In this document: one piece after another, positions 7,887 to 21,129 of the stretch
How positions within the stretch are numbered: position 1 is the stretch's first letter
Layout: every line of letters starts with the position of its first letter
NCBI GenBank assembly: GCA_003345555.1
Contig: PRDJ01000073.1
Location: 1 to 32,000, forward strand
DNA from: Candidatus Thorarchaeota archaeon
Lineage (GTDB): Archaea > Asgardarchaeota > Thorarchaeia > Thorarchaeales > Thorarchaeaceae
Length of the DNA stretch: 32,000 bases
Direction of reading: 5' to 3'
Position numbers and translations under genes: made by a program
The notes under the pieces: generated by a model
The model's input: the letters and a program-made list of their open reading frames with translations, nothing else
What the model was told of the DNA's origin: nothing
The model's database searches: none

Positions 7887-8303
7887 ATGGTCATAGACAG
7901 AGAGGGAGCAACTAGTGCAATAATCTTGCGCCTAAACACTGGGAAACCCGTGGAGTTCCCAGCGGAGTTTGTATCTGACATAGGGGAGAAAGCTGCCCTC
8001 ACCGTGTTGCATCACAAGGACAAAGTCGTCAAGCTATTTCCTGTTTCCAGTGACGTTATCTACCTTCTGAGAATCGAGATTAGCGATCTCTCACGCAACT
8101 TCCTCAAGCAGCTCAACTTTGCATTTAACGATGCTAAGTTGAATGACATCATTTTCACGACTGGCGTTTGCCTAAGGGGAGAACGCTGTTACTACGAGTG
8201 TTATTTCGTGCCCGATCAGCTGGTCGTGACCTTGCGGGAGCTGGAGGATAGCCTCAAGAAAATCCCCGGTGTCTCAAGGGTAGTGTTACGCAAGGTAGAC
8301 TAG
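7887..8303 (+). CDS. Small protein with AbrB-like N-terminus and ACT-like C-terminus (putative regulator)
   Basis: 'KPVEFPAEF...KVVKLFPV' resembles a swapped-hairpin fold and 'LRIEI.D....L..L...F...LEDSLKKIPGVSRV' is ACT-like. TTTTATTA TATA-like element at 7830-7837. Confidence 0.6.
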   Translation: MVIDREGATSAIILRLNTGKPVEFPAEFVSDIGEKAALTVLHHKDKVVKLFPVSSDVIYLLRIEISDLSRNFLKQLNFAFNDAKLNDIIFTTGVCLRGERCYYECYFVPDQLVVTLRELEDSLKKIPGVSRVVLRKVD

Positions 8304-9285: not shown

Positions 9286-9814
9286 TTCTTCTCCGCTCCG
9301 CGAAAGGGCCCAAGCACTCTCTATGCTTCTCTATATGCAATTCTATTGTACACCTTCGGTGTATGGATAGTTGTGCGTCAATGATTAGTGGCACACAAGA
9401 GGGACTGCAGGCTTGTGCAACCGTGCTGTGTTTCACTCAGTGGTTTCGGTGACGCACGATGAACGAAGGACACCTAGAGAAACAGAGAAAGCTCATTCAA
9501 CTTCTCGAGCACGGATGCTAACGCCCGCTGCTAGAACAGATACCTCTGCCATCATAAACAGGAACGACACCTCCGTGCTTTAGGTGGCCAGAAAAGACTT
9601 GGCCTGTTGATATAGGCTTTCCGGTCTCAGAGGGAAAGCGACTCTTCTCATGTCGGAATTTGAGCTCAACCACCAAAACACCTCGTGAGCACAAGATACG
9701 GACAGAAGCATTTATTTCTGGTAAGTCTCGCGTGACCGCAGTTTCCGTCTGGCGATTCTGAGGCCGACAACGAGACTAATGCAATCATGCTGTGCACAGA
9801 GAGAGACGAGAAAG

Positions 9815-11524
9815 ATGCCAAAGCCATCCAATCCACTAATCGTACAGTCTGACAAGTCTGTTCTGCTTGAGGTCGACAATCCCCTCTACGAGAAGGCGAG
9901 GGACTCCTTGGCCCGTTTTGCAGAACTAGTCAAGAGCCCAGAGTACGTCCATACATACAGGATTACACCCCTCAGCCTCTGGAATGCAGCCGCAGCAGGG
10001 ATGAAACCGGATGCCGTCGTACAGGCTCTTGAACAATACGCCAAGTATCCCATTCCAGGTAACATTGCTCGCGAGATCCTCGACTATATGAGCCGGTATG
10101 GCCAGCTGTCGCTTCTGAAAGAGGGAGACAGGCTCATTCTCTCATGTGCGAACGATGATCTTGCCGAAGAGATTTGGGCTAACACGAAGGTCCGGGAGCT
10201 TCTGTTAGACAGACTAGACAAGACTAGGATGCTCGTAGATCCAGCTCAGAGAGGTTTCGTCAAACAGATACTCCTTGATTTCGGCCATCCCGTTGACGAC
10301 ATTGCGGGATACGTCAAAGGTGAGGAACTGCCCTTCGAACTGCGTTCTACCACCCTCGGGGGAAGACCATTCAAGTTGAGGGCCTATCAGCAAGATGCTG
10401 CGGCCACGTTTTATGCAGGTGGAGGAATAACAGGAGGCTCGGGCGTGGTCGTGCTGCCATGCGGATCCGGAAAGACAATGGTGGGCATGGGCATCATGCA
10501 CGAACTCCAGACCTCAACTCTGATATTGTGTCCCAACGTTGTTGCAGTGCGTCAGTGGATAGCAGAACTGCTCGACAAGACCACCCTCACGCCAGAGCAA
10601 ATAGGAGAATATACTGGCGACAACAAGAACGTGCGCCCTATCACTGTCGCAACCTACCAAATACTAACGTGGCGCAGGTCGAGGGAGGAAGAATTCGAGC
10701 ATTTCAAGATCTTCGAGGCCAGAAAATGGGGTCTAATCATATACGACGAAGTGCATCTTCTTCCTGCCCCAGTATTCAGAGTGACTGCATCCATACAAGC
10801 GACAAGGAGACTAGGCCTCACTGCAACACTTGTCAGGGAAGATGAGAGGGAAGAAGACGTCTTCAGTCTCATAGGGCCAAAAAGGTACGACGTTCCGTGG
10901 AAGCAGCTTGAAGATCAAGGCTGGATTGCAACTGCAGTCTGCTATGAGATTCGTGTAGATCTACCTGACAGTCTGAAGCGGAAATATGCAATCGAGGAGG
11001 ATCGGAGGAAGTACAGGATTGCAGCGGAGAACCCGGTCAAGCTGGAAGTGCTCCTCAAGATAGTAGCTCACCACCAAAAGGACAACATCCTCATCATAGG
11101 CATGTACTTGGATCAATTGAAGATCATCGCTGATGAACTGGAAGCCCCACTGATTACGGGAAAGACAGGCAACGACGAGCGCCAGGAACTGTACGATGGC
11201 TTTCGTCATGGAAAAATCAAGACGCTTGTCGTATCCAAGGTCGCCAATTTCGCTCTGGACCTTCCCGATGCAAATGTGGCAATTCAGGTATCCGGGACAT
11301 TTGGTTCGCGTCAGGAGGAAGCTCAAAGACTGGGGCGAATCCTCAGACCCAAGGTAGACGGCAGTCTGGCGCGCTTCTACTCTATCGTCACGAAGGATAC
11401 TCGTGACATGGACTTCGGGGCAAAGAGACAGCTGTTTCTGACCGAACAAGGATACCAGTACGTCATAGCATCTGCAGATGAAGAAGTCTGGAAACAGGCA
11501 CCTGAGTCCCTTTGTGCTGTCTAG
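9815..11524 (+). CDS. xpb: XPB/Ssl2/Rad25-type SF2 DNA helicase/translocase with N-terminal clutch (Helicase_C_3-like) domain
   Basis: N-terminal 'PLIVQSDKSVLLE...RFAELVKSPEYVHTYRITPLSLWNA', then 'LRAYQ', Walker A 'LPCGSGKT', 'IIYDEVH', 'LGLTATLVRED' and 'SRQEEAQRLGRILR'. Likely ATG at 9815. Confidence 0.95.
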   Translation: MPKPSNPLIVQSDKSVLLEVDNPLYEKARDSLARFAELVKSPEYVHTYRITPLSLWNAAAAGMKPDAVVQALEQYAKYPIPGNIAREILDYMSRYGQLSLLKEGDRLILSCANDDLAEEIWANTKVRELLLDRLDKTRMLVDPAQRGFVKQILLDFGHPVDDIAGYVKGEELPFELRSTTLGGRPFKLRAYQQDAAATFYAGGGITGGSGVVVLPCGSGKTMVGMGIMHELQTSTLILCPNVVAVRQWIAELLDKTTLTPEQIGEYTGDNKNVRPITVATYQILTWRRSREEEFEHFKIFEARKWGLIIYDEVHLLPAPVFRVTASIQATRRLGLTATLVREDEREEDVFSLIGPKRYDVPWKQLEDQGWIATAVCYEIRVDLPDSLKRKYAIEEDRRKYRIAAENPVKLEVLLKIVAHHQKDNILIIGMYLDQLKIIADELEAPLITGKTGNDERQELYDGFRHGKIKTLVVSKVANFALDLPDANVAIQVSGTFGSRQEEAQRLGRILRPKVDGSLARFYSIVTKDTRDMDFGAKRQLFLTEQGYQYVIASADEEVWKQAPESLCAV

Positions 11525-11599
11525 AATCCGTGGAGTCCAGCCACCCTGAGCATGTCTTCTGCCGGACCTTGGACTGATTGTTCTGTTTGACAGAATGGG

Positions 11600-12541
11600 T
11601 CAGGTTTGCCTTGTCACCAAGATGGACCTCAGGTAATCCATTTTCTCGTGAATATACCCTAAGACTCTGGGCCCGATATCAGGGGTCACAACCTCAGGCT
11701 CAATCATTTCTCTCTCGAGATTGGCCAAGAAGCATATACTCCAACCGATAGCTGACATTAGAGCTAGCGGCACGAGAGCCTGAATGATTGCGGCCTCTTC
11801 ATAGCTCTTGAAGACACCATCGGGGACATGGTGGTGGGTTGCTCCCTCGGCCTGACTGACGAGGTAAGCTAAGTCTAGAAGCGGTTCTCCGATGCTGCAC
11901 GATCCCAAATCCAGCAACAGGACCCTATCCGGCTGAATTATGATGTTCGACTCCTGTAGGTCTCCGTGCATAGTCCTGCGGGACCAGACGCATGCAGCAT
12001 CGATGCTGCTTCCGAGTTCCTTCGCGGTCACACCAAAGAAACCTGCTGCGGCCGCTAGCTGAGGCGAGAAACCGGTGGAACCTTTCTTGCTACGAAGGAC
12101 TTGGTCCGTGATGTGTTTCAGATACTCGGAAGGCTTCTTGTAGGACTGAACTCCTCGTGGATGCAGCTGTGACAGAATCAAAAGCGCCTGCCGCATTTTT
12201 TCCAAACCAGATGCAGGAATTTGGTCAAGGGATGAAGGTATAGTGCCCTCAGCGTATTCCGCTATGATGAAAGGGGTTCGGAACTCATCATCAAGACGAT
12301 CACATTGAATCGGCTTGGGACAAAGGTCTCTGCGGCGCAGGAAATTCATGACTTCGTATTCGTAACTATACGGGTGTGCCTTATGAGGACCCTTGAGCAC
12401 TGGCAACTTCAGAATGTAACGTTGTCTTGGCGTTCGGGCAATCAGAGAAACACTGTCCCAGCCGCCATGGGGTGCAGAATCGAGAGTAAGCGAATCACTG
12501 CCACGCCATGCTTTGTTGACCAACCTGCCGAGTTCACTCAT
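11600..12541 (-). CDS. Aminoglycoside phosphotransferase/choline kinase (APH) family protein
   Basis: Gly-rich 'HGGWDSV', 'YILKL', Brenner motif 'HGDLQESNII', 'LLDLG' and 'GEPLLDLAYL'. Likely start at 12541 (ORF extends to 12658). Confidence 0.8.
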   Translation of the reverse strand: MSELGRLVNKAWRGSDSLTLDSAPHGGWDSVSLIARTPRQRYILKLPVLKGPHKAHPYSYEYEVMNFLRRRDLCPKPIQCDRLDDEFRTPFIIAEYAEGTIPSSLDQIPASGLEKMRQALLILSQLHPRGVQSYKKPSEYLKHITDQVLRSKKGSTGFSPQLAAAAGFFGVTAKELGSSIDAACVWSRRTMHGDLQESNIIIQPDRVLLLDLGSCSIGEPLLDLAYLVSQAEGATHHHVPDGVFKSYEEAAIIQALVPLALMSAIGWSICFLANLEREMIEPEVVTPDIGPRVLGYIHEKMDYLRSILVTRQT

Positions 12542-12661
12542 GTCATGACCGTGTACTTTGGAGATTCTTACCCTCACAGGCCTTTCACCCCAAGAAACAA
12601 ACATGTCTGGAATCTCTCGACCACAAGAGCCCGCTTTCTGGGCCGCTCCACAGTCCAAGCA

Positions 12662-13789
12662 TTAGACTTTCTTGCCTGACAAGATATCCCCTATTGACGC
12701 CAGCAATGCCGACAGATGGATGAAGGGGTTCTTACCTTGTTTCATTCGGAAATCGATTTCAGCAGTCCTCTGCACCAGTGCGTTTCGTGTCGTCTCGTCA
12801 AGTGACCTCACAGCGATTTCCCTCTGAATCTGAAGACACACCTCGTCCGGAGTATACCCCTCGACGGCCAACAACTGTTTCATCAAGTCTCTGGATTCAC
12901 CAAAGGAACCCTTTGCGGCCAAGGAGACCATACGGCGCACAGCGCTCACGATTCGAGACTCGGAGCATTCATAGACGATGTCTTCGGTGACCTTGGTCAC
13001 ACCCGCTGCTGAGATTTGAAGAAGGTTCAGGGCACGTCGCATATCACCTGATGACTCTTTAGCGATGGCGGCGAAGGCGGTATCATCTACCTTGAGGCGT
13101 TCTTTCCCAGCAATGTCCTGCAGGAGCCTCATCACGGTCTCGCCTGATAAGGCGGGAAACCTGAGTATCAAGCATCGAGACAAGATTGCAGGACTCCAGC
13201 CCGTCAATGATGGAGTGATTAGTATGAACCGGCAGGCATCGCTGTACATTTCCATAGTCCTGCGGAGCGACTGCTGCATACTCGTATCGAGAGCATCGGC
13301 TTCGTCGAGGACTAGGTACTTAATCATCTCATTGCTCAGAGTCATTGTGGAAGCAAACATCCTGATAGCTTCGTGCAAGAGTTGACCCTTGTTCGGCTCG
13401 CGAGAGCGGCCCTTGAGAGCAATACCAGTCTTTGCTTCACGATATACTGCAGACATGAACTCATCCAATTCAGTACGCTCGCTTCGGTCCAGTTTTGCCA
13501 AAGCCGTTAGGTCACGCTTAGCTTTTGCGACTGATATATCCTTCAAATCGCGAATATTGAGATACTGGAAGTTTTCTGTGAATGTGTCCCCCAAGAGATC
13601 TCTGGCGAACACCTGGGCAGCACATGACTTACCTGTTCCAGGTGGCCCAAGGAATATCATGTTGTGCGCGGTCTTTGACCTAGCAAGGCCTCTCAACTGG
13701 CCAATAGTATCATCTTGGCCAACGAACTCATCCCACGTATGTGGGGCGTATTTGATAGACCAGAGAACTGGCTCCAACCATCGCACCAA
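12662..13789 (-). CDS. rfcS: Replication factor C small subunit homolog with an internal insertion
   Basis: 'WSIKYAP..WDEFVGQ', Walker A 'GPPGTGKS', Walker B 'LDEADAL', 'QQSLRRTMEMY', 'SRC' and 'GDMRRALNLLQ'. Confidence 0.88.
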   Translation of the reverse strand: MVRWLEPVLWSIKYAPHTWDEFVGQDDTIGQLRGLARSKTAHNMIFLGPPGTGKSCAAQVFARDLLGDTFTENFQYLNIRDLKDISVAKAKRDLTALAKLDRSERTELDEFMSAVYREAKTGIALKGRSREPNKGQLLHEAIRMFASTMTLSNEMIKYLVLDEADALDTSMQQSLRRTMEMYSDACRFILITPSLTGWSPAILSRCLILRFPALSGETVMRLLQDIAGKERLKVDDTAFAAIAKESSGDMRRALNLLQISAAGVTKVTEDIVYECSESRIVSAVRRMVSLAAKGSFGESRDLMKQLLAVEGYTPDEVCLQIQREIAVRSLDETTRNALVQRTAEIDFRMKQGKNPFIHLSALLASIGDILSGKKV

Positions 13790-13927
13790 TCAAAGGGGCT
13801 AGAGCATGACAAGATAAGTTTGCCTTTACCAACCTCGAACGATAACTCATCATCTTTTCTCTACAGGTCATTTGATAGCACAACCAAAATCGTCATAAAC
13901 AGCTGATATGAGCCTCGTTGGTTACAA

Positions 13928-15670
13928 ATGTCGAAGGAAACGCTCGAACAGGAGCTTGAGCACCTTCTAAGAGAGGACCTTCTTGCAGCCTGCCAGTTCT
14001 GGGGAGTACAGGTGACTGGTACTGCCTCAGGGACATCGCTCGTCAAACTCCTTGCTGAGAAGATGAAATCCAAAGAGGGCCGAGACCGCACCTTCCATTC
14101 CTTTGACCAGAAGGAAACCGACCTGCTCGGAATGCTCACCCTCAGCGGAGGAGCAATGAGCTATGACAGGTTAAAGCCGTACAGGAAAATCTATAGCTAC
14201 GGCCAACTGAACCAAACTGAGAGAGATTTACGAAAGAAGGGTGTTATTGTCAGACGCGTAGTCTCTAGGCTCACAGAATATGGTCGGGAAGTCGCCGAGT
14301 TCAAAATCCTCGACTTCCTTGTCCCTCATCTGGTTAGATTCTTCTCGGAGAAGCCCACACCTGTGACCGAGAAACCAAAGTCAATCAGAACAACCATCGA
14401 CTACAGAGACACGCTCTTGGTTGACATGCTCCTCCTTGTGTCCTACCTTGCCAAAGAAGATGTGAAGATGACATCCTCTTGGGAGTTCCCGAGCCGGGAC
14501 ATCGATCGCGTTATGCAGGCCATGTCGGAGCCCACGACTGACCGGTTTGACCTTGTCCAGAAGGCGGCACGCAAGACGGGTGCATATTCCATCATCGAGA
14601 GTGATAAGGCCGTTCCCTCCAAGGTTGACGTATTGTTCGCCGGACCGCAGGAGCAAGTGGCTCGACGGGTGCTGTTCTCAGCGCTAGGCCGCTCCAGAGC
14701 GATATGGGCAACACCTGACCAGCCGACAGAATACACTCTCAACCTTGCGATATGCCGACTGCGTGAGTGCACCGTTAAGGACTGGATTAGTATCACGGAG
14801 CTTCGTGATTGGATTCGCGCAGAGCTGTTTGTCGACAATCAGCCATTGAAGTGGATTCAAGTCGACGAAGACCGGGTCAGCACAGCTCTAGAGACTCCTG
14901 TTCTGCTTGGCCTCCTACAGGCCGCATACAAGGGAAAGAAAATCCAAGCAGTCAACTTGACACCAGTCGGCGCAGCCGTCATCGCAAATCAACCCCTTCC
15001 TCCGGCTGAGAGCAGGGAATCATTCTTCGTTCAGCCGAACTTCGAGATTACAGTATTCACATCCGAGATGGATTACTACAAGCTATACCAGCTTATGCTT
15101 TTCGCCGAACCAGTTAAGACTGATGTCGTAAGCACACTCAGGATTACAGACAAGTCAGTGTTTCAGGCAATAGAGATGGGTCTCAGAGAGAGAGACATTC
15201 TGGGATTCCTCGAGAAAGAGAGCAGCAAGCCAGTCCCGGCGAATGTCGTCCGCTCAGTCAAGGATTGGGTCTCCCAAGCCACATTCGTCACGATTTCCCA
15301 AGTGTACATGTTGGAGACGGATAACGAGAAGGACCTCGAGAAGCTCATGCTCATCGAGGATTTCAGACAGAGCGTTGTGAAGAAAGTGGGACCAACGGCA
15401 GTAGTACTACAGGGCGATGTCGACAATCTGGCCGAGGATCTTCGAAAGCACAAATGCAACATCACGAGGGCCGATAAGAAAAAGGCGGAACTGGAAGTTA
15501 CTCCAGGTGCTGCAGTAGCTGAGCAGGTTTTACTCTATGGAGACCAGACAGTGACTGATGCTCCTGCGAACTGCATGGGTTGCCCGGCCCTTCAGTCCTG
15601 CAACAAGGTGGTCAAACGTAAGCGCGGGCATCATGAGGAGAACGTGAGTGAAGAAACCGATACTTCCTGA
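13928..15670 (+). CDS. XPB-associated protein with Helicase_C_3/Tfb2(p52)-like clutch domain
   Basis: C-terminal 'FFVQPNFEITVF...LMLFAE......LRITDKSVFQAIEMGL....ILGFLEKES..PVPANV...VKDW' has the same pattern as the XPB N-terminal domain and the p52 clutch. N-terminal helix-extension-helix-like segment, and terminal CxxCxxxxxC. Confidence 0.78.
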   Translation: MSKETLEQELEHLLREDLLAACQFWGVQVTGTASGTSLVKLLAEKMKSKEGRDRTFHSFDQKETDLLGMLTLSGGAMSYDRLKPYRKIYSYGQLNQTERDLRKKGVIVRRVVSRLTEYGREVAEFKILDFLVPHLVRFFSEKPTPVTEKPKSIRTTIDYRDTLLVDMLLLVSYLAKEDVKMTSSWEFPSRDIDRVMQAMSEPTTDRFDLVQKAARKTGAYSIIESDKAVPSKVDVLFAGPQEQVARRVLFSALGRSRAIWATPDQPTEYTLNLAICRLRECTVKDWISITELRDWIRAELFVDNQPLKWIQVDEDRVSTALETPVLLGLLQAAYKGKKIQAVNLTPVGAAVIANQPLPPAESRESFFVQPNFEITVFTSEMDYYKLYQLMLFAEPVKTDVVSTLRITDKSVFQAIEMGLRERDILGFLEKESSKPVPANVVRSVKDWVSQATFVTISQVYMLETDNEKDLEKLMLIEDFRQSVVKKVGPTAVVLQGDVDNLAEDLRKHKCNITRADKKKAELEVTPGAAVAEQVLLYGDQTVTDAPANCMGCPALQSCNKVVKRKRGHHEENVSEETDTS

Positions 15671-16682
15671 ACAGTTGATAGGGCATTTCCTAGGAGTTGG
15701 CAGTGTCGGTGAGACTGACCCAAAAGCTCCTCTCGCCTACGTAAAGTCATTGCGAGTACCCTACGCCTATGAACTACCGAGGCTTAGAGAAGAAGACATG
15801 ATCAGGCGGTTCGCCGCGCTCGTGGATGGGTTCGAGGATAAGGGCGATTTCGTCATGGACATCGATATGTACGTGTACCGGGACATCACCGAGGACGATT
15901 CGCCTCTCTTGCCCGACGAAGCCCATGCACATAGCCTGTACCTGATGACCCAGAATGCATCCTACAATCTCTTCAAGACGCAGCAGCCGGCTCCAGGCAC
16001 GATGTGTTTCAGCACGCGGGGAATCGACGGTAGGCAGCTCGTATCCCGAGCAATGTTTCACCTCTACTCTTCTTTGATGTCAAGGGCAGCCATGGGTCAA
16101 ATGAAGCATCTGTCCCAGTGTTGCAAGAGTATCATACTGTGCCAGGATGATCCTGCACTTGGGTTCGTGTCAAAGATGCTACATGAAGGAAAAGGAGAAG
16201 ACCTAACCTTAAGACAGATTGTTCAGAGTACTGAGAGAGTCTACCCGGTCAATTCGATACCTGCCTACCATTACTGTGATGACTGGAGAGGACTCATCGA
16301 AGACGATTGGTATGTCCTGTGGGACGGTCAGCCAAGAATCAATCACATCGACTTGGTATCATTCAAGCCTGAGATAGAATCCGACCATGCAGAGAGACTG
16401 AATTCATTCCTAGAAAGGGGAGGAAGCATTGCCCTGGGAGTCCTACCGAATGTCGACAGTGGCTATTCCAATCCTGTAGTTGAGACGCTCAGGCAGAATT
16501 TGGAAAAGACGCTGCAATTGCTACACGACAGCGGCGTGGATTTGGGTCTCTTGAGTGACCGAGCCATGATCTCAACTCAATGCGGGCTCTCGAGCGCAAG
16601 CAGCTCGCTGTGTAGAGAAATACATGAAAAGAGCAAGGAATTCCCCACTGTCTTCCGGAAAACGATCAAGAGCTTCATTTGA
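15648..16682 (+). CDS. UROD/MetE-superfamily protein (single-barrel cobalamin-independent methionine synthase-like)
   Basis: N-terminal 'GVGSV', 'QDDPAL', Zn-ligand-like HxC ('HYC'), 'GSIALGVLP' and terminal 'STQCGLS'. Overlaps the upstream gene by 23 bp. Confidence 0.62.
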   Translation: MKKPILPEQLIGHFLGVGSVGETDPKAPLAYVKSLRVPYAYELPRLREEDMIRRFAALVDGFEDKGDFVMDIDMYVYRDITEDDSPLLPDEAHAHSLYLMTQNASYNLFKTQQPAPGTMCFSTRGIDGRQLVSRAMFHLYSSLMSRAAMGQMKHLSQCCKSIILCQDDPALGFVSKMLHEGKGEDLTLRQIVQSTERVYPVNSIPAYHYCDDWRGLIEDDWYVLWDGQPRINHIDLVSFKPEIESDHAERLNSFLERGGSIALGVLPNVDSGYSNPVVETLRQNLEKTLQLLHDSGVDLGLLSDRAMISTQCGLSSASSSLCREIHEKSKEFPTVFRKTIKSFI

Positions 16683-17988: not shown

Positions 17989-18954
17989 CTATGGCTTGTA
18001 GGTCTCTTGAAGTATCCTAACAAGCTCTGCCGCAAGGATTCGGAAATCTGCTTTTGAAACGTATGGCACGTCACTGCTGCGTTTGGGAATATCAAATCGC
18101 CCAACTACGACCGCGACATCTTTGTCCATAGAGAACTCGAACAATCCGGGGTATTTTGTCCTGAGTCTCACTTGGGTTGTTGCCTTGTCCACTGTCCCGC
18201 CCTTGTAAATCGTGCCTACGAGGTATGGATAGACGAAACCAGACTTAGAAACTTGGACCTTTATCGTGACTGTATCCGGAAGGCCATCCAGATAGGCCTT
18301 GCATTCAGCGCCTAGAATCGTATGCATGTCACCCCGCTCGCCTACCTCGACGCTGACTCCTGCCCTTACGCCCTGAACGCTGGCAAGTTCACGCGAGAAC
18401 GCATAGGAATCTCCGGATAGCGGGGGCTTGAAGAAAGTCTTCGGATCAATCTTCACTACCCTGTATCCTACTAGAAAACCAAGCACAGAGACTATACCAT
18501 ACTGGACTGCAATCAAGATGAAGGAGTCGACAAGGTTCCCAAAAAGGGGCGGCTGGAACTGTTGGTAAAGTGTGCTCAGTATCCCTAGACCAATCGAGAC
18601 GGGAAAGAGTACGCAACAGGTCAGTCCTCCTGCAGCACTGGCATAAAGGTGACCGTAGGCCTTCTCATGCGCCTCAACCATACGTTCATACTCTGAGAAG
18701 TTAACCCAGACTGTCTGGCGTTTCCACTCGCCGGGAATGTAGTCGATTGCTCTTTTTGAACCAGCTCCCATCGAAGCGGAGAACAACAGAACAAGTACCG
18801 GTATCCCGAAATATGTCACCGACAGAGAGCTCAGGTCGGACGGACTGCTGACCTTGAACCAAAATCCGAGAGCAATGAAGATGGCAACCAGTACCGGAAA
18901 AGCTAGATTAACCATGCGCTGCCTGCTGTAGTCAATAATCCTTTCTTCACTCAT
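17989..18954 (-). CDS. Uncharacterised 4-TM membrane protein, paralog 3 of a tandem triplet
   Basis: Layout is 2 TM, 'W......NFSEYERMVEAHEKAYGHL', 2 TM, then 'GYR......FFKPP' and a soluble beta-rich C-domain. Confidence 0.8.
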   Translation of the reverse strand: MSEERIIDYSRQRMVNLAFPVLVAIFIALGFWFKVSSPSDLSSLSVTYFGIPVLVLLFSASMGAGSKRAIDYIPGEWKRQTVWVNFSEYERMVEAHEKAYGHLYASAAGGLTCCVLFPVSIGLGILSTLYQQFQPPLFGNLVDSFILIAVQYGIVSVLGFLVGYRVVKIDPKTFFKPPLSGDSYAFSRELASVQGVRAGVSVEVGERGDMHTILGAECKAYLDGLPDTVTIKVQVSKSGFVYPYLVGTIYKGGTVDKATTQVRLRTKYPGLFEFSMDKDVAVVVGRFDIPKRSSDVPYVSKADFRILAAELVRILQETYKP

Positions 18955-19921
18955 TCGTTTCTTTCTTCTCCCTGTCGACGCTGTCGGGTGTACCTGTGGA
19001 CGCAGTTGAAATCATCCCTAGCTCGGCCATCACTTCATCAAGTATCTCATCGCTGCCTTTTGCTTTTACGTACTCTGCGATACAACTTCTTACGAGCTCA
19101 TCGAGCTGATTATGGATGGATGTACCATTCTCTGCTTGCGGGGCAACGAGCTTCATCTCTTCTGAATCAAGCTTGACCTTCGCCACAGCCTCAAAGGGCA
19201 CGCCCAACTTGTCAGCTTGGACCTCAACCCAAGCTGAATTCTCTATGCCTTCAATCCTGCCCACTGCGCCGGGGCTTCGAAGTGTGAAGTAGCCTGCGCT
19301 TTCACCGATAGATAGTCTGATGCCGGCCCAAGAAATGCCAACGGTATCTCGAAGCAGGTCAACAGCAGCGCGCAACGGCCGAGCCTTGATGAGTGGAAAA
19401 CTTGGGGTGGCATCATTTGGGAGTGCCATGTACGCAACGCGAAGAACAGTCAGCCCCAACACCATCAATAGCATGGCAAACACATGAGGGGCCCACCCCG
19501 ATGCTTGCTGGAATTGCTCCACAATGATTAGTGGCAACAGCAGGGCAATCGCGGCAACAGCAGCGGCCATCAAGACTAATGGAATATCAAACCTGCTTTG
19601 CAGGTGCGAGTATGCCCGCGTGTAGTCTCCTGCAAGATGCTCGAACTCACCATACTCAATCTCCCTTTCCTCAAGGTGCCACTCGATAGGAGACACCGAA
19701 ACCTGCAGTTTCATTCTCCAAGACGTTAGAATCAAGGGTGCCAGCATGGTCGCCATTACAGCAGCAGCCAGAACAAACCATCCACCCGGGTCTGACCAAG
19801 CCGTCAGCAGTACAGATTGAGACAACTCCTCCCCTGCAACAATCCATATGAGTAAGACAACAAGAACAAGGGCGTAGTACGGGAGGAGTGATCTGTAGAC
19901 GACAACTTCCTTAGACACCAT
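18947..19921 (-). CDS. Uncharacterised 4-TM membrane protein, paralog 2 of a tandem triplet
   Basis: Layout is 2 TM, 'W......EYGEFEHLAGDYTRAYSHL', 2 TM, then 'AY.......SFPL' and 'GYFTLRSP...RIEG'. Overlaps the next gene by 8 bp. Confidence 0.8.
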   Translation of the reverse strand: MVSKEVVVYRSLLPYYALVLVVLLIWIVAGEELSQSVLLTAWSDPGGWFVLAAAVMATMLAPLILTSWRMKLQVSVSPIEWHLEEREIEYGEFEHLAGDYTRAYSHLQSRFDIPLVLMAAAVAAIALLLPLIIVEQFQQASGWAPHVFAMLLMVLGLTVLRVAYMALPNDATPSFPLIKARPLRAAVDLLRDTVGISWAGIRLSIGESAGYFTLRSPGAVGRIEGIENSAWVEVQADKLGVPFEAVAKVKLDSEEMKLVAPQAENGTSIHNQLDELVRSCIAEYVKAKGSDEILDEVMAELGMISTASTGTPDSVDREKKETNE

Positions 19922-19955
19922 ACTGCCTCGTCACTAGAACGCGCTTACTGGACAG

Positions 19956-20984
19956 TTAGCAGTTTCGGTGCTCGAAGTCTACTTGCCGAACACCAAGGAG
20001 CTTGAGCTCTTCAGATGCTAGGCTTCCATTGATGCCCCTTTGCAGGAGTTCCGAGAGTATCAGTGCGATTGCGTTCTCGGTCACAAGTCGTACATCCTTC
20101 ACACCCAACTGCCGAATCTTCGAGGGGACGGGGTTACGTACATAATATCCTTCTTTATCGTCTGGAGTCCTCTTGAGGAAACTCCTGTCTCCAGAGTGCC
20201 AAAGCCAAGATGTGCTCCATGAGCCATCAGGTCCTTTGAGGACACATAGGACCCGCGAAAGAGATCTGAGGTCCTCGGAGGCCGACTGGACACAAGCTTC
20301 GTGTTCGAATCCTGAGATACGCACAATCACGCGCGGATTTCTGTACACAGTGAAATCGCCACTCATTCCCTTGTCCATCGCTATTCTTACAGGTGAGACG
20401 TTGGGAACGCCCTGCTGCATTCCAGCTAGCCAGAGAGCCTCACGGATCGGAGGAAGTTGGAAGTCGGGCGAGGCCAAGTTGGAAGTTGCTCGATATCCAC
20501 CATAGAAGCTGACAACTCCGATGCATGTTACTGTCAGAACTGACAGGACTGTAATAGATGGAGCAGTCAAACGGTTTACAAAGAAGGAGTAGTACGGCAG
20601 CGACAGATTCAGGAAAACCAAAACGACAGGGAGATGGAAGTACCAAAGCCTGCTAATGGGCACCATGCGGCTGTATTGTCTGGCATGGTCCCGAATCAAA
20701 CGGACACATTCTTCGGCCTCTAGCTGAATGGTTTGGAACTCCCAGTTTGGACGTGAATAGGAGACTGCGGACTTCTTTCCCCTCCAGCCCAGAAAGAATC
20801 CGATAATGGCCGTGTACAATGGCAGGCCTAGAAAGAAAAGTAGCACAGAAGCATAGACAAAGTCAGACATAGGTGCGGCAATCGGGACGATGTAGCAGGA
20901 GATTGAGATCACGAAAATGGTCTGGAGAAGGAACAGGCCCCAGATGACTTTGAGTGATTTGTAGGCAATCGGAGACGCTGACAT
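19956..20984 (-). CDS. Uncharacterised 4-TM membrane protein, paralog 1 of a tandem triplet
   Basis: Layout is 2 TM, 'W......EAEECVRLIRDHARQYSRM', 2 TM, then 'GYR......DFQLPP' and 'GDFTVYRNP...RISG'. ATG at 20984 (a GTG at 21002 is possible). Confidence 0.8.
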   Translation of the reverse strand: MSASPIAYKSLKVIWGLFLLQTIFVISISCYIVPIAAPMSDFVYASVLLFFLGLPLYTAIIGFFLGWRGKKSAVSYSRPNWEFQTIQLEAEECVRLIRDHARQYSRMVPISRLWYFHLPVVLVFLNLSLPYYSFFVNRLTAPSITVLSVLTVTCIGVVSFYGGYRATSNLASPDFQLPPIREALWLAGMQQGVPNVSPVRIAMDKGMSGDFTVYRNPRVIVRISGFEHEACVQSASEDLRSLSRVLCVLKGPDGSWSTSWLWHSGDRSFLKRTPDDKEGYYVRNPVPSKIRQLGVKDVRLVTENAIALILSELLQRGINGSLASEELKLLGVRQVDFEHRNC

Positions 20985-21129
20985 CCACGAACCGTCCTTC
21001 ACTGTTGCGACACAATTCTGGCATCTTTAAGCGTTGCGCGCCGGCCATGAGTCCGGCAGGCACGCCTCCATACTGTGAGACGAATGTGCCGACCTATTGT
21101 GCTGTCGGTTCTTGCGACCTACGACAACA

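Follow-up and report, generated by a model that had tools for sequence, protein, structure and literature searches.

A bacterial-type XPB and a predicted p52-like partner in Thorarchaeia

Introduction

In eukaryotic TFIIH, p52 recruits XPB through a pseudo-symmetric dimer between its clutch and the XPB N-terminal domain (PMC6422496), and p52/p8 activates XPB and limits its speed (PMC7708078). According to a 2026 review, archaea are without a TFIIH-like assembly, and, as stated by Balasingham 2012 (PMC3353954), no p52 homologs had been found in bacteria. Is there, then, a prokaryotic counterpart of the XPB-p52 partnership, and where would it come from? The question is raised by 32,000 nucleotides of Candidatus Thorarchaeota archaeon (GenBank assembly GCA_003345555.1, contig PRDJ01000073.1, positions 1 to 32,000; this whole stretch is called the window), in which a long XPB and a protein of 580 amino acids, designated P580, are encoded close to each other. 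An earlier note, made from the sequence alone, had read the two as a minimal XPB-p52-like core in an archaeon, relevant either to TFIIH origins or to bacterial gene transfer.

According to our analysis, the module is real and conserved: a bacterial-type XPB that, together with a p52-like partner, is fixed in one Asgard class. Its domain anatomy, predicted fold, distribution, and maximum-likelihood tree position are shown by the data. The explanation that we favor, with fair confidence, is that a bacterial-type module, a prokaryotic translocase of the XPB-p52-like kind, was acquired once by the common ancestor of Thorarchaeia, was kept almost universally, mostly stands in for the short-XPB/Bax1 system, and probably acts in DNA repair.

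Domain architecture of XPB and P580

The two genes and their domains are as follows.

9815-11524, plus strand: XPB, long (bacterial/eukaryotic-type) superfamily 2 DNA-dependent ATPase/translocase of 569 amino acids (NF045503, Pfam, and intact motifs)
9836-10216, plus strand: XPB N-terminal clutch-fold domain, PF13625 (E 1e-35)
10112-10309, plus strand: XPB DRD-like alpha/beta domain, about residues 100-165 (boundaries inferred)
13928-15670, plus strand: P580, predicted p52/Tfb2-like nonenzymatic XPB partner of 580 amino acids (AlphaFold2 model, Foldseek, and VIA)
13928-14992, plus strand: P580 N-terminal and middle region, winged-helix type, collinear with the N-terminal half of p52 (6tru_B, Z 8.2 over 239 residues)
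15011-15283, plus strand: P580 clutch domain, residues 362-452 (PF13625 and structural superposition)
15269-15475, plus strand: P580 p8/Tfb5/Tfb2C-fold alpha/beta domain, residues 448-516 (predicted local distance difference test [pLDDT] score of 91 for the domain folded alone)
15572-15601, plus strand: P580 C-x2-C-x5-C tail (Cys549, 552, and 558), within the low-confidence C-terminal tail (alignment)

The XPB gene starts with the ATG at 9815; an in-frame ATG is also present at 9779, but homologs align from 9815. Its product passed the equivalog model for bacterial-type long XPBs (NF045503) with 860 bits against a cut-off of 610, and it combines an N-terminal PF13625 domain with ResIII, Helicase_C, and ERCC3_RAD25_C in that order, the Walker A, DEVH, RED, and VI motifs all being intact. 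It is the sole XPB gene of the genome (93.5% complete), in which PF13625 occurs only twice, in XPB and in P580. Thr51 of XPB corresponds to human T119, and the Thr equivalent to T119 is conserved. At the position of human XPB F99, where F99S is a patient allele, a Ser (Ser31, window 9905-9907) is found here and in 38 of 52 Thorarchaeia XPBs overall.

The earlier note had placed a clutch domain at the XPB N terminus and a second copy near the C terminus of the 580-amino-acid protein, 2.4 kb downstream, and both were recovered. The P580 copy (PF13625 at residues 368-480, 51.9 bits, E 9e-14, over the curated cut-off) lies in the C-terminal half with about 100 residues following it, and its reading frame starts 2,403 bp past the XPB stop. 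Both clutch-fold domains are intact and conserved, with an invariant Pro-Asn and an invariant Trp. The p52-like identity of the protein proved stronger than claimed, the predicted match being collinear over residues ∼39-511 and not confined to the clutch. In sequence searches of the PDB with P580, p52 did not appear, and the sole matches were to the N-terminal domain of XPB (E 0.003-0.2), so the link to p52 is a structural one. An AlphaFold2 model built with 120 homologs (pLDDT 81, predicted template modeling score 0.72) was compared by Foldseek, and the 19 best matches were all p52/Tfb2 (E 6e-10 to 2e-5, ∼530 columns), while XPB chains ranked below them and matched the clutch only. VIA-align superposed residues 39-511 on residues 25-461 of human p52 with Z 13-14 and a global root mean square deviation (rmsd) of ∼20 Å, and therefore the domains are collinear but differently arranged.

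At the level of single domains, winged-helix matches of the ArsR/MarR kind were obtained at residues ∼41-145 and 253-354, and the clutch superposed on the human XPB N-terminal domain with Z 15.3 and an rmsd of 1.3 Å over 91 residues (VIA-align). When residues 448-516 were compared with 48,161 chains, the top five were XPB DRD, Tfb5/p8, and Tfb2C, with Z 4.8-6.7 against a background of at most 4.4, modest values for a small domain; the best structural match was human XPB 171-295. Foldseek with the same domain returned p8 in its top six rows, but with E above 0.2, which is not significant. P580 thus has a predicted p52 architecture over most of its length, with a winged-helix region, a clutch, and a p8/Tfb2C-fold domain, and the model predicts that it is p52-like in action. 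Identity to p52 is about 12%, with template modeling (TM) scores of 0.22-0.31, and on the Pfam Tfb2 profile (PF03849) P580 reached 13.9 bits against a gathering threshold of 34.5, the best thorarchaeote reaching 28.7 and 0 of 86 exceeding the cut-off. Being below this threshold, P580 is not filed as a p52 ortholog.

The XPB DRD-like domain, the P580 C-terminal domain, and p8 appear to have one common fold, and a hidden Markov model (HMM) of p8-like mini-genes (described below) matched the DRD-like region of Thorarchaeia XPBs weakly. The arrangement suggests that the XPB N-terminal domain with its DRD and the p52 clutch with its C-terminal domain represent one duplicated two-domain unit, of which p8 is the free second half. 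The Cys tail of P580, invariant in 120 of 120 aligned homologs and also present in the sister-family genome, is a possible metal site; several bacterial partners carry a WYL domain in its place. A complex prediction with XPB 1-180 and P580 340-515, in which the XPB side had no alignment, scored 0.27 and 0.29 against a mark of 0.32 and was counted neither way.

Other TFIIH and repair genes in the genome

Neither PF06331 nor an HMM built from four bacterial p8-like mini-genes, both weak probes, revealed a separate p8/Tfb5 in the genome. Neither a conserved small open reading frame (ORF) nor a p8-like gene turned up upstream of XPB or at other places in the genome, and p44/Ssl1 (PF04056) gave no genome match. 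With neither p8 nor p44 found, a TFIIH core does not appear to be present. An XPD/DinG-family helicase gene is present, unlinked to XPB, as are two adjacent UvrA-like genes (G000:C41 83430-86617) and a third UvrA-like one elsewhere within an open frame of 1,619 amino acids (C17 22033). The absence of Bax1, which the note had also remarked on, extends beyond the window: a DUF790 search came up empty in the 93.5%-complete genome and scored in three archaeal controls. The system of a short XPB with an adjacent Bax1 is accordingly not in this genome, whose XPB has the N-terminal domain and which holds no DUF790 and no second XPB.

Distribution among Asgard archaea

Profile searches of 400 Asgard genomes detected PF13625 in 82 of 85 genomes of the family to which the window belongs, in the single genome of a sister family, and in none of 313 other Asgards, mostly as two copies. 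Where both PF13625 domains lay on the same contig in Thorarchaeia (51 cases tabulated), 50 were spaced 4.4-8.5 kb apart in identical order, and the linkage is therefore not due to chance; in one genome the partner is 72 kb distant from XPB. Within the class the partner evolves faster than XPB (∼65% versus 78% identity). The long-type XPB core was likewise found only in Thorarchaeia among Asgards, the XPB-like helicases of the others being short or distant (best E 3e-43). Bax1 showed a near-opposite pattern to PF13625, occurring in 4 of the 85 genomes of the same family and commonly in many other Asgard families; a few Thorarchaeia carry both systems, among them G313, in which a short XPB adjoins Bax1. 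In the largest Asgard family sampled (f22, 135 genomes), only 16 genomes had Bax1 and an XPB match, and most apparently lack either XPB system. Synteny of the locus in dozens of Thorarchaeia genomes led us to reject contamination or misbinning; a syntenic locus with 94% identity is present in a Ca. Thorarchaeota metagenome-assembled genome.

The pair in bacteria

Outside Thorarchaeia, a PF13625 partner adjoins or lies near a long XPB in cyanobacteria, actinobacteria, Deinococcus, Paenibacillus, Planctomycetota, Chloroflexota, and one woesearchaeote; two inspected long-XPB loci had no PF13625 partner nearby. Fusions into a single ORF occur in both orders, as XPB-partner in P0428 (a single record that may be a frameshift artifact) and as partner-XPB in P0430 and P0431, which differ from each other. 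In three other candidates, P0432, P0433, and P0435, the XPB half is truncated, and these were set aside as probably due to frameshifts. Bacterial adjacency and fusions are independent evidence for a partnership of XPB and its partner and support the pairing that the window first suggested. In Planctomycetota, UvrA-XPB fusions of ∼2,500 amino acids (P0427 and P0429) and UvrA-XPB-partner operons (L118 and L138 among the loci) were found, which are the best pointer to repair.

Bacterial partners are mostly 620-920 amino acids long, against 580 for P580. Directly upstream of the partner in Chloroflexota-type and Deinococcus XPB loci, unannotated p8-like mini-genes of 66-99 amino acids were identified (L125 6228-6428, L126 5869-6123, L128 6042-6242, and L059 7750-8049), which are homologous to the p8-fold domain of P580. 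The woesearchaeal locus (L123 8001-12609) has a different layout, with a long XPB followed by a 414-amino-acid protein with PF13625 at its N terminus and then by a 354-amino-acid protein of unknown kind.

Phylogeny and origin of the module

Core-domain trees rooted on short Asgard XPBs and full-length trees under LG+F+G4 and C20 posterior mean site frequency (C20-PMSF) models were inferred, with fragmentary XPBs and redundant rows excluded; supports are Shimodaira-Hasegawa-like approximate likelihood ratio test (SH-aLRT) and approximate Bayes (aBayes) values from short searches, as the ultrafast bootstrap did not converge. In the core-domain trees, Thorarchaeia fell among bacterial XPBs, with eukaryotes on a long separate stem. 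In the full-length trees, Thorarchaeia were sister to Chloroflexota (SH-aLRT 99.4 under LG+F+G4 and 99.3 under C20-PMSF; aBayes 1). The nearest non-thorarchaeal XPB among 50%-cluster representatives (P0121, 63% identity) groups with Chloroflexota, and identity of the window XPB was 62-65% to Chloroflexota-type XPBs versus about 35-39% to eukaryotic ones. In the trees, the position of the long eukaryotic branch is poorly resolved; eukaryotic XPB clusters with prokaryotic XPBs of the long type and not with the short XPBs of other Asgards. The woesearchaeal XPB was placed elsewhere, apart from Thorarchaeia, which suggests separate transfers into archaea.

The partner gave the same picture. The best-scoring partners of P580 were those of Chloroflexota (HMM 60-75 bits; HHalign 99.4% over residues 36-514), and its TM scores were 0.51-0.67 to bacterial partner clusters versus the values of 0.22-0.31 to p52 given above. 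Chloroflexota are thus the closest, for XPB and partner alike, among the sampled relatives. Of the two origins that the note had held out, bacterial transfer fits, because among Asgards only Thorarchaeia have the pair and the XPB falls among bacterial XPBs, next to Chloroflexota; a bacterial origin of the pair is likely. The direction of transfer rests on the far wider spread in bacteria, since Thorarchaeia are sister to Chloroflexota and not inside them.

Proposed mechanism

By analogy with TFIIH, XPB and P580 form a physical complex with high probability. Coupling as in TFIIH would be the most likely mode, because both surfaces, the clutch and the XPB N-terminal domain, are present: the P580 clutch and the XPB N-terminal domain would pair sheet to sheet as a pseudo-symmetric dimer (PMC6422496 and PMC7708078), and this pairing would hold the two RecA lobes, raising basal ATPase activity and capping the DNA-stimulated rate. 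The built-in p8-fold domain of P580 may act without a separate p8, and the winged-helix half may contact DNA or recruit other proteins. With neither p8 nor p44 found, the module would work on its own as a regulated translocase on duplex DNA. A role in repair is reasonably probable. Since UvrA and an unlinked XPD/DinG are encoded in the genome, repair beside separate nucleases is its most plausible form: the module would use ATP to move along duplex DNA and open a bubble, which would then be handed over to nucleases encoded elsewhere.

Neighboring genes and alternatives to a two-protein module

Two genes, both on the opposite strand, lie between XPB and P580.

11600-12658, minus strand: APH/choline-kinase-like phosphotransferase (PF01636, E 4e-15)
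12662-13789, minus strand: second RFC small-subunit paralog with an insert of ∼50 amino acids (profile matches)

The APH kinase, with 22-33% identity in most relatives and undetected in loci L093 and L115, was rejected as a part of the module, being poorly conserved and missing from view in some Thorarchaeia loci; it is probably a variable neighbor outside the module. The RFC paralog is transcribed divergently from the P580 gene. Its insert (at ∼13376-13537) lies between Walker A and B and is basic and probably helical, its sensor-1 region is altered and without the sensor-1 Asn, and canonical RFC small and large genes are present on another contig of the genome. On the RFCS2 equivalog model (PRK12402) it scored 231.8 bits in a single continuous match and did not pass the cut-off of 317. 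It may work together with XPB and P580, or it may be no more than an RFCS2-like subunit. The former possibility can be extended to a three-part machine specific to Thorarchaeia, in which XPB opens or remodels DNA together with P580 and the RFC paralog with its insert provides an alternative clamp loader that places PCNA for repair synthesis or to restart forks. The insert is distributed like the pair (77 of 85 genomes in the family and the one sister-family genome, versus 1 of 313 other Asgards), and the paralog sits between XPB and partner genes even in the sister family, divergent from the partner. Such a machine is nonetheless improbable: no bacterial XPB-partner locus that was inspected carried an RFC or clamp-loader gene, a second RFC small subunit is a known regular component of the replicative loader (PMC2880001), unrelated neighbors are equally syntenic, and the partner can lie 72 kb away. 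The single non-thorarchaeal genome with the insert is a possible misbin.

Further ORFs of the window are also conserved. The 138-amino-acid ORF at 7887-8303 (plus strand) has no Pfam match and is better conserved than XPB, with 84-98% identity family-wide and 64% in the sister family. A 344-amino-acid ORF at 15648-16682 (plus strand), also without a Pfam match, overlaps the end of the P580 gene by 23 bases and shows ∼50% identity in most Thorarchaeia loci, though undetected in some. At 17989-21002 (minus strand), three consecutive ORFs of 321-348 amino acids without a Pfam or NCBIfam match, at least two of them paralogous, keep their order across Thorarchaeia. A promoter and terminator scan, of a type unsuited to archaea, stayed at chance level.

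It could also be argued that XPB and P580 share ancestry but no longer interact in Thorarchaeia, with P580 acting as a winged-helix DNA-binding protein in its own right and gene-order inertia keeping the two linked. The two intervening opposite-strand genes, the faster evolution of the partner, and the synteny of the whole region are in line with this; both clutch-fold domains, however, have remained intact and conserved, the genes co-occur across Thorarchaeia, and their bacterial relatives are adjacent or fused, and we consider loss of interaction quite unlikely.

Alternative origin and function

The opposite historical account would make the pair a relic of a proto-TFIIH in Asgard archaea, with eukaryotic XPB and p52 derived from a Thorarchaeia-like pair that was lost in other Asgards, and with the likeness to Chloroflexota due to transfer from archaeon to bacterium. 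If true, the translocase arm of TFIIH predates eukaryotes inside Asgard archaea. Approximately unbiased (AU) tests in which a Thorarchaeia-eukaryote clade was forced gave p 0.31 and 0.29 for the full-length set, 0.11 under C20, and 0.043 for the rooted LG analysis, the last rejecting the clade. On the basis of these values, TFIIH ancestry is disfavored but not formally rejected. P580 is p52-like in size and without a WYL domain, and Thorarchaeia partners scored 14-29 bits on Pfam Tfb2 versus at most 14 for the 11 bacterial and woesearchaeal partners scanned; all of these Tfb2 matches, though, are under the cut-off and confined to the clutch region. Against such a relic stand also the absence of PF13625 from all 313 other Asgards, the position of Thorarchaeia among bacteria and of eukaryotes on a long separate stem in every maximum-likelihood tree, and the failure to find p8 and p44 in the genome. 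TFIIH ancestry through the thorarchaeal lineage is unlikely, and a working two-subunit proto-TFIIH from an Asgard ancestor common with eukaryotic XPB-p52 is very unlikely, as is the relic account as a whole.

A role in transcription, in which the pair would open promoters or clear RNA polymerase that has stalled, in the manner of XPB-p52 in the eukaryotic preinitiation complex, draws on the structural likeness to the TFIIH sub-module and on near-universal retention in Thorarchaeia but is equally remote, given that archaeal RNA polymerase melts promoters without ATP, that the pair is missing from other Asgards and the p44 bridge was not found, and that the bacterial context points to UvrA and WYL sensors.

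Weighing the bacterial-module reading

The bacterial translocase module thus remains our preferred explanation, and several points weigh against it. In the genome analyzed, XPB and P580 are not cotranscribed, since the two opposite-strand genes between them make them separate transcription units rather than one operon, and because the entire neighborhood is syntenic across Thorarchaeia, their linkage inside the class is not independent evidence of coupling. Replacement of XPB-Bax1 is not obligatory, as five Thorarchaeia genomes hold both Bax1 and a long XPB. Deep nodes of the trees were weakly supported, as was, in the core-only tree, the grouping of Thorarchaeia with Chloroflexota; three of the four AU tests did not reject the Thorarchaeia-eukaryote clade; Thorarchaeia are sister to Chloroflexota and not nested; and only 13 non-thorarchaeal partner candidates were compared. 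Binding of P580 to XPB and stimulation of its ATPase are inferred from TFIIH, and the repair role is drawn from analogy and planctomycete context only.

A p52-like partner is fixed across an entire Asgard class and occurs widely in bacteria, which means that a ready-made prokaryotic module was probably the precursor of the XPB-p52-p8 arm of TFIIH. The pair offers a simple system for testing how the XPB-p52 partnership began; the job of the prokaryotic long XPB, which has so far been assayed without its likely partner, and the source of the module in eukaryotes are now testable.

Comparison with known systems

Literature searches retrieved no paper describing a prokaryotic p52-like partner, and the main text of two structure-based Asgard surveys (PMC12962969 and PMC13734099) does not mention TFIIH, Tfb2, or XPB. 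Family fam18955 of Méheust et al. 2022, "TFIIH-like / ERCC-3," was noted for distant RAD25 homology, for its position by RFC small genes in three Asgard genomes, and for 20-23% identity to Theionarchaea copies (PMC9258230), and it is probably the P580 family. In that paper, the family is annotated as ERCC-3/RAD25-like, and p52 homology, XPB pairing, and the bacterial link are not recognized.

Among characterized archaeal systems, XPB-Bax1 (PDB 2FWR, 6P4F, and 6P66; reviewed in PMC13024598) shares the XPB helicase core and RED motif, but its XPBs are without the N-terminal domain and have a nuclease partner, whereas the XPB of the window is from another clade, its partner carries no nuclease domain, and Bax1 was not found in the genome. 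For the RFC paralog, a possible counterpart is RFCS2 of Methanomicrobia and Halobacteria (PRK12402; PMC2880001), likewise a second small paralog with a Walker A-B insert, from which it differs in scoring under the PRK12402 cut-off and in an insert sequence essentially restricted to Thorarchaeia among Asgards.

The TFIIH sub-module XPB-p52-p8 (Ssl2-Tfb2-Tfb5; PDB 6NMI, 8EBS-8EBU, 7NVV, and 6TRS) has in common with the thorarchaeal pair a long XPB with an N-terminal domain, a Thr at the T119 position, and a partner with a collinear winged-helix region, clutch, and p8/Tfb2C-fold domain. P580 differs from p52 in its low identity, its other predicted domain arrangement, its extra Cys tail, and its Tfb2 score under the cut-off, and the thorarchaeal system differs in that separate p8 and p44 were not found in the genome and that XPB is without the large eukaryotic extensions. 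The bacterial XPB (NF045503; Mycobacterium tuberculosis XPB, PMC3353954) with its uncharacterized PF13625 "helicase-associated domain" neighbor is of the same XPB type, has both genes close together, and has a partner homologous to P580 over residues 36-514; compared with it, the thorarchaeal pair has an archaeal host, APH and RFC genes in between, a shorter partner with a Cys tail in place of WYL, and no p8-like mini-gene found.

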